10,106 nt of DNA, taken from IMG/VR virus record IMGVR_UViG_2737471839_000009; one strand, given 5' to 3'. Positions 7,228-10,106 of this stretch are shown here, piece after piece (the first letter of the stretch is position 1; each line of letters begins with the position of its first letter). Below the pieces are notes generated by a model. It made no database searches. It was not told the DNA's origin and saw nothing but the letters and a program-made list of their open reading frames with translations. The position numbers were made by a program, and so were the translations under genes. Source of the stretch: a virus. Taxonomy: Duplodnaviria; Heunggongvirae; Uroviricota; Caudoviricetes.

Positions 7228-9347
7228 AACCAGCCTCCTGATGTTATCCATGGATTATCTTCCGCACGCTCCGTCCGCAGTTTTTTCTTCCGGCGACGGC
7301 GTTTTTCTGCCCCGGCCGTCAGTTCCGGGGATGCCGTTTCACCAGAACGCTCCTGCGGGAAGACGAGCCACGTTTCCCGCTGTGCCCAGTCCGGTGCGGA
7401 GGGCCAGCGGATCTTTTCGTAACCATGCAGAACGGCAAGCGCATCCGCATAAACCAGCAGGTCAAACGCCTCGTTAGCGCCCCTGCCCGGTTTTCGCCAT
7501 TTTCCGTCACTGCCGCGCTCTTCATAGGTCAGCTCATCGTAAAACCACCGCCCCAGCCAGTCGGGAAAGTGGATATAGTTCGGCCCCGGTGTGTCACGCC
7601 ACAGGGCATTATTTACACGGTCCTTAAACGCATCCGTCTGAACCAGCCACAGCGCGACATCGCCACTGGCTCTGGCACGGCGGGCACTTCTGCCGGTATT
7701 ATCCGGGAAGGTACGGTTAATCAGCCTGTCACGGCGAAGACCATCCCCCTTGAACAGAAACACCCTGTTGCCCAGTCCGTCACTCCGGCAACGACGCCAG
7801 AAACGATAGGCGTTATCTGTCACCCCGGCTTCCCCTCCCGTATCCACCGCCATGGCCATCAGACGCATGCGCACATCCGGATCAGAAGCCAGCGGCCATG
7901 TTTTATGGAACACATCCGTCAGCAACAAATCCCAGTCCTCCGGATATGCCGCCGGATCAACCGGCAGACTTTCACCGTTGGGACTGCAGCGCAGTGAATG
8001 CCGGATGTTGTAGCGATCAACAATCCAGCGTTCCCCCTGCTCTCCGTATCCGGTGATCTGCACAACAAAACGGCGATTTTTACCGCCCTGTACGTCAACC
8101 GTTGCCTCAATAAAACGCACACCATCCGGCACAGATCGCCGGGGAAACGGCTCGGCACGCTGTTCAAGCAGTTCACTTTTACGCTGTTCCGTGGCTGAAC
8201 GGGGCAGATAGGGTCGTCCGATATCGGTGTTCACCACCGCTTTCAGGGTCTCTTCACTGCCGGTTCGCTCATACTCTTCTTCTGCCGCCAGCAGTTTAAA
8301 AATCAGTTGTTCCCAGGTCTGAAACGCCGCAGCCGGCCCCTCCATCCAGAATGACGCAATCCGGGAATTTCGTGGCGTTCCGGTGATACTGCCGTCCGCC
8401 GCCGCCCGTTCACCTTCACGAAGCCAGATCCCCTGGTTATTCAGTTCACGTTTCTGTTCCGGAGCAATCAGGCCGCAGCAGTGCGGACACATCAGGCGGG
8501 CCGCCTGCCCGGCAGCCACAAAATCAGGGTTATTCCGGTAACCGGTCATGTTATCCATCACCGGCTGAAAATATTCCCCACAGTGCGGACACGGCCAGTA
8601 CCACCGACGGCGGTCTCCCCGGTTATACAGGGACAGGATCCCCGTTGTTGGGGGTGCCTCATGTGTGCCGCCACATCGCCATTTGGTGTCAGTGATATCC
8701 CGCCCGGGTGAACTCTCGACCAGGGTCATCCCGGAAGACATAAAGGTGGTGGTACGCTTTGATGCCAGGGTGAAGGCATCCCCTTCCCCGTCCACGTTTT
8801 CAGGGAAACGGTCATAATCCGTCAGCGCCACACGACGGTAATCCGAGGAGGAAAATACGGTGATCGACGGCCAGCCAATCTTCAGGAAGGAGCCGTCAAG
8901 AAACATTTTATCGTGGACGTTGTTGTCATTACGGGAAGGACTGAGACGCTTACTGACCTCCGGGCTGTGACGAAACGTTCTGGAAAGACGCGTTCTGGAG
9001 TGTTCCCGCGCCTTGGTCTCGGTCATCTGCACCACCAGCATATCCGCCGGATCACAGATGATGCCGTACACAATCCAGCCATCAATCAGCCCTTCGGTTT
9101 TCCCGGTCCGCGCCGGTCCTACAAACACCACCGCGTCATATTCACGGGCTGATAATGTATTAATGGGGTCAATCATATAGGGCGTCAGTGATGACTCCCA
9201 CGGACCGGAAGTGTTGGCTCCCCGTGGTACCCGCATATAACGCCTGATGGCTTCCGCTACTGGTAACCGGCCAGGTGGGCGAAACAGCGAGGCCACTTCG
9301 CGCCAGATATCGGATGCGCGGCTATGGCTCTCGTTCACCTGATTCAC
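7224..9347 (-). CDS. A: Terminase large subunit (lambda gpA family)
   Basis: 707-aa ORF. N-terminus MNQVNESHS…SLFRP parallels lambda gpA; Walker A-like VFVGPARTGKTEG (about 9093..9119); two CPHC motifs (CPHCGEYF… and …MCPHCCG, about 8475..8591) as in gpA-type terminases. Starts with GTG overlapping the small-subunit stop. Confidence 0.93.
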   Translation of the reverse strand: MNQVNESHSRASDIWREVASLFRPPGRLPVAEAIRRYMRVPRGANTSGPWESSLTPYMIDPINTLSAREYDAVVFVGPARTGKTEGLIDGWIVYGIICDPADMLVVQMTETKAREHSRTRLSRTFRHSPEVSKRLSPSRNDNNVHDKMFLDGSFLKIGWPSITVFSSSDYRRVALTDYDRFPENVDGEGDAFTLASKRTTTFMSSGMTLVESSPGRDITDTKWRCGGTHEAPPTTGILSLYNRGDRRRWYWPCPHCGEYFQPVMDNMTGYRNNPDFVAAGQAARLMCPHCCGLIAPEQKRELNNQGIWLREGERAAADGSITGTPRNSRIASFWMEGPAAAFQTWEQLIFKLLAAEEEYERTGSEETLKAVVNTDIGRPYLPRSATEQRKSELLEQRAEPFPRRSVPDGVRFIEATVDVQGGKNRRFVVQITGYGEQGERWIVDRYNIRHSLRCSPNGESLPVDPAAYPEDWDLLLTDVFHKTWPLASDPDVRMRLMAMAVDTGGEAGVTDNAYRFWRRCRSDGLGNRVFLFKGDGLRRDRLINRTFPDNTGRSARRARASGDVALWLVQTDAFKDRVNNALWRDTPGPNYIHFPDWLGRWFYDELTYEERGSDGKWRKPGRGANEAFDLLVYADALAVLHGYEKIRWPSAPDWAQRETWLVFPQERSGETASPELTAGAEKRRRRKKKLRTERAEDNPWITSGGWL

Positions 9348-9820
9348 ATATCGGCCTCATCACAACAGTCAATGACTGCCTTTTCCAGTGTGTCGCGGAT
9401 CTCATCAACCACAATCTGCACTTCGTTCAGTTGTGATGCAGTCCACCCCCTGTCCCTCTCCAGCCTGTCAGGCCAGGTTTCCAGTACCTGAACTATCGCT
9501 TTCACCACGACAGAAAACGACCGCCTGACATCACTGACAGGGACAAGCTGAACAGTTTCATGCTGAAATTTAAGACGCTCGCGCTCGGACTGATACCATG
9601 CCTTGCGATCGTGTGGATTCATCTCCTCATCTTCGGTGGATGGTGTTTTTGCCAGCAGCGCAGTAATCAGGTCCGTCAGGAGATAAAGTTTTTTCTTCTC
9701 ATTACTGCCCGGAGCAAGAGGAACATCCGCCATTCTTGCGGTAACGGTCTGCCGGTGCAGGCCTGAAAGGGCTGCCAGTTGATTAATATTTAACTTCATA
9801 TTTTTCAGCTCGCCGTCCAT
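9344..9820 (-). CDS. Terminase small subunit (DNA-recognition subunit, Nu1-like role)
   Basis: 158-aa ORF immediately upstream of and overlapping the large terminase. N-terminal helix-turn-helix-like segment LNINQLAALSGLHRQTVTARMADV; strong GGAGGAGG Shine-Dalgarno 5 nt upstream; about 190 bp downstream of the cosN candidate, like lambda Nu1. Confidence 0.8.
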   Translation of the reverse strand: MDGELKNMKLNINQLAALSGLHRQTVTARMADVPLAPGSNEKKKLYLLTDLITALLAKTPSTEDEEMNPHDRKAWYQSERERLKFQHETVQLVPVSDVRRSFSVVVKAIVQVLETWPDRLERDRGWTASQLNEVQIVVDEIRDTLEKAVIDCCDEADM

Positions 9821-10004
9821 CTACGCCTCCTCCACATACCCCTCTGAACAGAAGTGATTCTGTTTTTTTGTAAAGAAATGCCGCCACACAAAGATGTCGA
9901 ACAAAAATTGGCCACAACCATCATCTTTTTTGCATCAATTACATTAAAAACAACAGTTTACATACATGATGATGATGACGATAAAATCACAAAAATGCGC
10001 TTTT
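9821..10004 (-). other. Putative cosB-like terminase-binding region between cosN and the small terminase gene
   Basis: AT-rich about 185-bp non-coding segment with short repeated motifs (plus strand GCCGCCACACA / GGCCACAACCA; CATCATC; (GAT)3-4 run at about 9968..9980) and an ATCAA-containing AT-rich stretch that could be an IHF-type bend site. Assignment is by position relative to cosN and the terminase gene only. Confidence 0.3.
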
Positions 10005-10032
10005 TTCCGCGCCGACCCGCCCCGTGTACAGG
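10005..10032 (-). other. Putative cosN (terminase nicking site / cohesive-end region)
   Basis: Minus-strand sequence …TGTACACGGGGCGGGTCGGCGCGGAAAAAAGCGC… resembles the lambda cos junction …TTACGGGGCGGCGACCTCGCGGGTTTTCGC… as recalled (shared ACGGGGCGG core, then a GC-rich 12-mer, then CGCGG plus a homopolymer tract). Its distance to the small terminase start matches lambda. Confidence 0.45.
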
Positions 10033-10055
10033 CCCACCCCGCCAGGAGGACCCGA

Positions 10056-10078
10056 AAAATGATAATTGTTATCATTTT
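10056..10078. repeat. Perfect 10-bp-arm inverted repeat AAAATGATAA-TTG-TTATCATTTT (operator-like palindrome, Fur-box-like core)
   Basis: Read directly from the sequence. The core TGATAAT-T-GTTATCA matches the 7-1-7 Fur-box form TGATAATnATTATCA at 14 of 15 positions. Confidence 0.6.
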
Positions 10079-10106
10079 GTAATGTGTTCCGGTTTCTTCC
10101 ACCATC

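Follow-up and report, generated by a model that had tools for sequence, protein, structure and literature searches.

Cos sites of lambda-like phages with mapped or recorded ends

The phages with a lambda-like cos site follow a common set of rules. They are defined by virion DNA with 12-base 5' single-stranded extensions, a 7-bp cosQ (GGGTCCT) approximately 30 bp upstream of the top-strand nick and a neighbouring large terminase of the gpA family (PMC4669245). Variation within cosN is concentrated in bp 7-12, a CG is found at both nicks and cosQ is conserved; additionally, R2 is inverted with respect to R3 and R1, and the IHF site is located between R3 and R2 (PMC4669245, PMC4856287). The conservation of cosQ has been described for the lambda-like cos phages (PMC4669245), and the Feiss laboratory already classes phages like the one analyzed here among them (PMC4669245, PMC4856287). 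In lambda, the I2 segment carries a static bend (PMC4856287) and the bottom-strand nick is positioned via cosB and not by the local sequence (PMC4669245, PMC4856287). That cos sites combine a left half that is conserved with a right half that varies is already well described.

A protein search with the small terminase subunit (TerS) of the window, which is the complete stretch of 10,106 nt analyzed in this study, returned 58 phage records. Zund et al. (2021, PMC8008629, Table S4) used read-start analysis together with PhageTerm to map the cos of Salmonella phage Fels-1, 5'-GGGCGGCAGCGG-3', and the junction of this phage reads CCACG GGGCGGCAGCGG CGCGGG. The record of cdtI begins at GGGCGGGAGCGT, right after CCACG, and that of yong2 at CGCGGG, right after a 12-mer. 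In the LLS record bases 1-12 (GGGCGGCGCGCT) are annotated as 5' cohesive site; this 12-nt end was inferred from mEp213 (Genome Res 2025, PMC12315714). For the cyanophage Cr-LKS3, 9-nt 5' ends GGGCTCGCG have been reported (PMC9303873). The junction of its record is GACGCG/GGGCTCGCG/CGCGGAAG (slashes mark nicks or ends, here and below), and the 9-mer is located exactly between CG and CGCGG. The 9-nt ends of Cr-LKS3 imply that the overhang length in this family can follow the spacing of the flanks and need not be 12.

The record starts of mEp460, Ayreon, mEp043 and mEp213 were rejected as ends, since they are set by convention at the TerS gene or shortly upstream of it and not at a mapped cos end. 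The virion-derived assembly of mEp460_4F5 (LR595868.1, L005:1-30) starts 5 nt before the expected top-strand nick, and its core GGGCGGGAGCGCGG is 3 nt shorter than the core GGGCGGGAGCGGCGCGG of mEp460. Given this offset and the short core, which may have arisen as an artefact when the cohesive ends were assembled, its start was set aside as unreliable evidence for a physical end. For the group of mEp213, LLS, cdtI and mEp460, putative cos sites are reportedly given in the survey of Vahanian et al. 2017 (Virology 509:140).

Composition of the cos region in the window

The cos region of the window is found on the minus strand (...GTACACGGGGCGGGTCGGCGCGGAAAAAAGCGC... / ...GGGTCCTCCTGGCGGGGTGGGCCTGTACACGGGGCGGGTCGGCGCGGAAAAAAGCGCATTTTTG...). 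Here, ACGGGGCGGGTCGGCGCGG at 10025 to 10007 is followed by an A6 tract at 10006 to 10001. The first G of GGGCGG (10022) is located 202 nt and the end of the A-tract 180 nt upstream of the TerS start codon (9820), which fits the initial annotation of this motif about 190 bp upstream of a small terminase gene. The lambda sequence quoted there for comparison agrees with the lambda record, reading ...GGTTACG/GGGCGGCGACCT CGCGGGTTTT... (GGGTCCTTTCCGGTGATCCGACAGGTTACG/GGGCGGCGACCT CGCGGGTTTT). The range proposed for the site, 9821-10032, misses cosQ at 10047-10053, which is part of it. The following features were assigned, with the first G of the core (10022) taken as bp 1.

10053 to 10047, minus strand: cosQ GGGTCCT, identical in 7/7 positions to the 7-bp packaging-termination element of lambda
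10025 to 10007, minus strand: cosN, ACG/GGGCGGGTCGG/CGCGG; left half as in lambda, right half divergent, right flank conserved
10022 to 10012, minus strand: GGGCGGGTCGG, 11 nt, most likely of the candidate cohesive-end segments; both predicted nicks at the conserved CG flanks
10011 to 10007, minus strand: CGCGG flank, bp 12-16
10006 to 9981, minus strand: I2-like phased A/T tracts, A6 at bp 17-22, T5 at bp 28-32 and T4 at bp 37-40
9980 to 9965, minus strand: R3-like putative TerS site CGTCATCATCATCATG, bp 43-58 (lambda R3: bp 50-65)
9960 to 9948, minus strand: IHF-like site TAAACTGTTGTTT, bp 63-75, between R3 and R2, weak consensus match
9931 to 9912, plus strand reads CCACAACCATCATCTTTTTT: R2-like site, inverted versus R3 and R1, bp 92-111, core GATGATGG at bp 98-105
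9907 to 9889, minus strand: R1-like site TTTTTGTTCGACATCTTTG, oriented as R3, bp 116-134, core CGACATCTTT at bp 124-133
9820, minus strand: start codon (ATG) of TerS, bp 203 (lambda Nu1: bp 191)
9820 to 9344, minus strand: small terminase TerS, 158 aa; Pfam DUF1441, E=5.5e-49; PHROG 141 'terminase small subunit', E=7.6e-66
9347 to 7224, minus strand: large terminase TerL of the gpA family with ATPase and nuclease domains; PF05876, E=8e-81; PF20454, E=6e-84

From the start of cosQ there are 31 nt to CG/GGG and 42 nt to CGCGG. In the left half of cosN, ACGGGGCGG, 9/9 positions agree with lambda, and this half is invariant in all E. coli variants. Within the core GGGCGG matches lambda in 6/6 positions and the right half in 0/6. 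CG dinucleotides flank both predicted nicks, but they are 11 bp apart and not 12 as in the lambda-like definition (PMC4669245).

Between cosN and R3 the A6, T5 and T4 tracts are phased by approximately 10 nt and resemble lambda I2. The motif GGC(G/T)(C/A)(A/G)TTTTT within this region is kept as far as cyanophage Cr-LKS3. Three CATC-type repeats follow, namely R3 in forward, R2 in inverted and R1 in forward orientation. R2 and R3 form an inverted-repeat pair (9919-9932 and 9961-9974), and the R3 element was also found in Fels-1, LLS, yong2, Kp4865-4, Chris1 and Pmp14. The putative IHF site TAAACTGTTGTTT has one mismatch to YAANNNNTTGATW and the same score as lambda I1, which is a weak consensus match only. 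Upstream of cosQ, at a distance of 3 nt, a perfect 10-nt inverted repeat (AAAATGATAA / TTATCATTTT) is located at 10056-10078. A similar T(N)ATCATTTT precedes cosQ in VT1-Sakai, cdtI, Kp4865-4, Chris1 and Fels-1, and lambda has TCATTATCAC there.

In an alignment of 60 unique relatives cosQ, ACGGGGCGG, R2 and R1 were near-invariant, with R2 AAAAAGATGATG unchanged throughout, and variation was seen in the spacers and in the core's right half. The I2-R3 stretch was fixed in this alignment by the anchor pattern of the search; it was also invariant in loci selected via TerS.

The composite pattern GGGTCCT-N18-28-ACGGGGCGG occurred once in the window and in 0/200 dinucleotide-preserving shuffles, so that the match is not due to chance. 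More than 200 independent loci showed the same architecture upstream of homologous terminase genes. The order of the genes is lysis genes, a 455-nt gap, TerS, TerL, a W-like adaptor, a lambda-family portal and a ClpP-capsid fusion. In a genome with 100% identity the site lies within this gap, which carries no annotation, between holin/lysozyme/Rz-like lysis genes and TerS. The cos of lambda has the same position relative to the genes (lysis genes, cos, TerS). Scanning 9700-10106 for promoters and terminators gave no hit.

Further similarities to lambda are cosQ GGGTCCT, ACG/GGGCGG and the identical right flank CGCGG, a cosQ-to-CGCGG distance of 42 in both, A/T tracts after cosN, the order of R3, IHF-like site, inverted R2 and R1, and the terminase genes directly downstream. 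However, the lambda core comprises 12 nt compared to 11 in the window, the right halves share 0/6 positions, and the R repeats of lambda are of the CGTTTCC type and not of the CATC type.

Fels-1 shares with the window a TerS of 56% identity, the ACG and CGCGG flanks, the I2 motif GGCGCATTTTT, R3 CATCATCATCATG and the repeats GATGATGA and TCATCATC. It differs by a 12-nt core and the cosQ variant AGGTACT (29+12=41) compared to the 11-nt core and GGGTCCT of the window (31+11=42). The closest DNA relatives in the phage collection were VT1-Sakai (Sp15) and related Stx prophages with approximately 86-92% identity. VT1-Sakai has an identical architecture with an 11-nt core (GGGCGGGCGGG) and a TerS of 95% identity; only two core bases, at positions 8-9, are different (TC versus CG). 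In the group of mEp213, LLS, cdtI and mEp460 a DUF1441 TerS of 37-56% identity is combined with the same flanks and I2 motif, and the homologous position is where the records begin or carry an annotation. These phages carry 12-nt cores, however, and their ends were inferred or obtained by an undocumented method. Cr-LKS3 shares a DUF1441-type TerS (31% identity), the CG/ and /CGCGG flanks, a cosQ-like GGGTCCC and the distance of 42, and differs in its 9-nt overhang.

Based on these comparisons, the segment from 10053 to 9889 (minus strand) is very probably the cos of a Gifsy-2/VT1-Sakai-type lambdoid E. coli prophage with a lambda-like build. The cos reading is well supported, because the homologous 12-mer of Fels-1 was physically mapped as the cohesive end and this is also where the cdtI, LLS and yong2 records break. 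The site is thus a genuine lambda-type cos of a well-known kind, and this member has so far been unannotated. This agrees with the initial annotation, which had seen a lambda-like cos with a non-identical cosN core upstream of a gpA-type terminase: homology to the mapped relatives, cosQ, the I2-like tracts and the repeats all point to such a site.

Other readings of the site have to be weighed against a functional cos. Many E. coli lambdoid prophages are defective, and the prophage of the window may be defective as well. The site could accordingly be a decayed, non-functional remnant in which the shortening of the core by 1 nt is the inactivating lesion. The departure of the core spacing from the canonical 12 would fit such a lesion, and one relative (L055) does carry a clearly truncated core of 7 nt. 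However, the 11-nt core was identical in 10/10 genomes with identical TerS, a second 11-nt variant occurs in VT1-Sakai and approximately 10 other loci, and 10-nt cores make up the majority. The other cos elements as well as the terminase, portal and capsid genes are intact, and indels left of ACG are compensated such that cosQ-to-CGCGG is kept at 41-42 nt. We therefore consider a remnant very unlikely. It is hardly credible that the GC-rich block is part of a small coding gene and not a DNA site. An ORF of 53 aa (10105 to 9944, minus strand) does span the site, its residues 25-53 match phrog_5188 (E=3e-8), and an overlapping 'hypothetical protein', gp59, is annotated in mEp460. But the frame is open only in the sublineage of the window and stops after 8-10 codons, before cosQ, in the relatives; indels of 1 and 2 nt within the block separate close relatives, and the conservation follows the non-coding spacing rules shared with lambda. 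The coding reading was rejected for the closing frame and the indels. A headful (pac) site, which had been judged unlikely from the start, was excluded by the gpA-type TerL (not of the P22, Sf6 or T4 type) together with the identity of cosQ and cosN to lambda.

The 53-aa ORF (9944-10105, minus strand) overlaps cosQ, cosN, I2 and R3, and PHROG 5188 is a family of unknown function. Since the frame is not conserved in relatives, this ORF with its PHROG 5188 match and gp59 of mEp460 are probably protein annotations of conserved cos DNA.

A contig ending at the site was not found among the IMG/VR loci selected via TerS, in exact-pattern scans of metagenome and viral contigs on the I2 side or in the assembly look-up. 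The nearest contig ends (L124, L129; metagenome and viral contig scans) were 23-24 nt away, and all ten places among the matches listed for the exact TerS in the assembly look-up were chromosomal. When the literature was searched for the core sequences, the only matches were unrelated ones to G-quadruplexes and primers.

Core length and candidate cohesive ends

The distance between the left CG and the right CGCGG is 12 nt in lambda, Fels-1, cdtI, LLS, mEp460, Kp4865-4 and Pmp14, 11 nt in the window and VT1-Sakai, and 14 and 9 nt in Gifsy-2 and Cr-LKS3, respectively. Most E. coli relatives carry a 10-nt core (GGGCGGGCGG, GGGCGGACGG or GGGCGGGAGG). Counted from its first base, cosQ lies 41-42 nt from CGCGG in about 235 of 241 sites. 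This distance is composed as follows (cosQ to CG, plus core).

Lambda: 30+12, sum 42
Fels-1: 29+12, sum 41
Gifsy-2: 27+14, sum 41
Cr-LKS3: 33+9, sum 42
10-nt class: 31+10, sum 41
Window: 31+11, sum 42

The constant distance implies that indels left of ACG compensate for indels in the core, and such compensated spacing indicates selection. The same TerL (more than 99% identical) adjoins both 10- and 11-nt cores. In Gifsy-2 (L095:430-480) the 14 nt between ACG and CGCGG are GGTGGCTTCGGGCT, with a left half unlike GGGCGG.

Three cohesive ends were considered. If the site is functional, the 11-nt overhang GGGCGGGTCGG is slightly favoured as a tentative prediction, since in every physically determined or recorded case the bottom nick abuts CGCGG and the top nick follows CG, and since the overhang of Cr-LKS3 equals its flank spacing. 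With respect to two-fold symmetry this segment scores 4/11, compared to 2/11 for each 12-nt option and 5-7/11 for the reference sites. The 11-nt core is not an error, as all ten genomes with identical TerS carry it. The initial annotation had proposed the 12-mer GGGCGGGTCGGC (10022 to 10011), for which the top nick would be fixed by ACG/GGGCGG and the bottom nick would lie 12 nt away irrespective of the sequence. It stays among the candidates, although it disagrees with the flank spacing of 11 nt and in symmetry is tied with the right-anchored 12-mer. The left half of lambda cosN is sequence-critical and bottom-strand nicking tolerates base changes, with TerL being anchored via cosB (PMC4669245). 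Together with the invariance of ACGGGGCGG across E. coli variants, the constant stagger expected of a symmetric TerL pair and the use of 10- and 11-nt cores by TerL proteins of 99% identity, this argues for GGGCGGGTCGGC. However, its bottom nick would be at cosQ+43, outside the family-wide 41-42, and flanked by GC instead of the conserved CG; its symmetry is below that of the 11-nt option and of the known sites, and the 9-nt overhang in Cr-LKS3 follows the flank spacing with no fixed 12. On balance GGGCGGGTCGGC seems rather unlikely. The right-anchored 12-mer GGGGCGGGTCGG (10023 to 10012) would keep the nicks at the 30 and 42 nt from cosQ known for lambda. It is in line with the cosQ-to-CGCGG distance of 42 shared with lambda and with the finding, as far as the work of Higgins and Becker is recounted in PMC4856287, that lambda nick positions are measured from the R site and not from sequence alone. 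But this end requires a top-strand cut behind AC instead of the conserved CG, and in every relative with a known or recorded left end the top nick follows CG; given also the low symmetry, this end appears improbable.

A fixed 12-nt stagger, by GGGCGGGTCGGC or GGGGCGGGTCGG, is conceivable because the same TerL stands beside 10- and 11-nt cores and the bottom nick of lambda is positioned via cosB. The distance to R3 does not separate the candidate nicks: with the CGCGG flank taken as the bottom nick, direct counting to R3 gave 32 nt for Fels-1, 33 nt for LLS and 34 nt for yong2, and the 33-34 nt of the window candidates fall within this range.

Returning to the 11-nt end GGGCGGGTCGG, a possible but doubtful extension would be that in this E. 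coli prophage lineage one TerL (more than 99% identical) cuts 10-, 11- and 12-nt cores into ends of different length, with the nicks set by the flanks and by the 41-42 nt to cosQ instead of a constant stagger of 12 nt. If so, co-resident prophages sharing a packaging enzyme would carry ends that are unable to anneal with each other. The 10/11/12-nt spacing polymorphism beside a near-identical TerL and at a constant cosQ-CGCGG distance offers a natural test of whether the terminase measures or reads the stagger. The conceptual value of the site is otherwise small, and this polymorphism is the only point worth an experiment.

Terminase genes, packaging specificity and distribution

The Pfam match of TerS is DUF1441 and not Phage_Nu1, and no similarity to lambda Nu1 was found by BLAST. 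By hhalign the similarity was marginal (E=7e-4, probability 26%), being co-linear with the helix-turn-helix segments aligned; in the window such a helix-turn-helix-like segment, LNINQLAALSGLHRQTV, is located at the N-terminus. Comparing the TerS sequence with the PDB gave no match, and a single-sequence AlphaFold (AF2) model had a pLDDT of 48, which is too low to use. Along its whole length, TerL shares 24% identity with lambda gpA (E=9e-19).

Two types of repeats were present in the E. coli relatives, CATCATCAT / CATCATCATCATG (type 1) and CACCATCACCACC (type 2). The repeat CATCATCATCATG is found with a TerS at least 93% identical to that of the window and CACCATCACCACC with a TerS of approximately 75% identity. 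All 38 amino acid differences between the two TerS types are located in residues 1-92 and residues 93-158 are identical; TerL beside both types is 99.2-99.6% identical. Since the repeats pair with the TerS N-termini and the rest is constant, cosB repeats and the N-terminal part of TerS are exchanged as one unit. Such a joint swap of repeats and TerS is known from the specificities with which lambda and 21 package DNA. Additionally, we noted that cosB and TerS residues 1-92 behave as an exchangeable module (window 9344-9820 and 9889-9980; loci L013-L092), and that megablast matches (query 479-807 of window:9300-10106, minus strand) to CP-1639, 1720a-02 and ASU11 begin approximately 180 nt into the TerS gene, at about codon 61. 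The suggestion that the short repeats are small-terminase binding elements gains from these data, as the R3/R2/R1 layout is that of lambda and the repeats co-vary with the TerS N-terminus.

Taking the observed elements with their order, spacing and conservation, the co-variation of repeats and TerS and the homology to physically mapped sites as a starting point, packaging may be pictured by analogy with lambda. The DUF1441 TerS would bind the three CATC-type repeats (R3, inverted R2 and R1), possibly aided by bending of the DNA between R3 and R2, in the A/T-rich or IHF-like segment, at which IHF might take part. Bound TerS would then position a pair of gpA-type TerL nuclease centres on cosN. 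The predicted top-strand nick follows ACG (10023/10022), and that of the bottom strand is expected directly at the CGCGG flank or beside it (10012/10011 or 10011/10010), presumably resulting in an 11- or 12-nt 5' overhang beginning with GGGCGGGTCGG. Packaging would proceed toward the terminase and head genes, and cosQ, 41-42 nt from the bottom-strand nick, would support the terminating cut at the next cos.

The initial annotation had further assumed that a different overhang would change the compatibility with terminases and in vitro packaging systems. This is contrary to the genetics of lambda and N15, in which packaging specificity maps to TerS-cosB, TerL shows no cosN specificity, alterations to cosN's right half are neutral and a 2-nt mismatch of the ends costs about four-fold in yield (PMC4669245). 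Lambda extracts would still be expected not to package DNA of the window, as its cosB repeats and TerS are unrelated to those of lambda, and not because of the overhang.

Three complete E. coli genomes matched the 307-nt cos region with 100% identity, and 553 of 5426 complete E. coli genomes (~10%) contained related copies. E. coli 08-00022 and 06-00048 carry the site with 100% identity. VT1-Sakai and Stx2 prophages were the nearest phage records (86-92% identity). In RefSeq and in the Stx-phage records cos is unannotated. Marking it fixes the genome ends and the packaging direction for a prophage family that includes the Stx1 phage of O157 Sakai, and helps in calling prophage boundaries, in interpreting lateral and specialised transduction and in the design of cosmids and phagemids.

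Two complete cos-like sites (cosQ, core, I2 and R3) in the same orientation and 2537-2539 nt apart were found in each of approximately nine IMG/VR E. coli contigs (L153:6150-8900; L150, L156, L163, L169, L173, L177, L184, L205). In L153 the first site combines type-2 repeats with AGGTACT as cosQ variant and precedes ORFs of 75 aa and 629 aa; the second has GGGTCCT and type-1 repeats, followed by an ORF of 93 aa instead of a DUF1441 TerS. A satellite- or PICI-like element would be one possible explanation, a recombinant module another.

Finally, the ORF of 738 aa at 3544-5760 (minus strand) of the window encodes a ClpP-type protease domain fused to a major capsid domain, a fusion described for heads of the Gifsy-2 type. 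The listed TTG start overlaps the portal gene by approximately 250 nt and the true start is therefore probably located further downstream.
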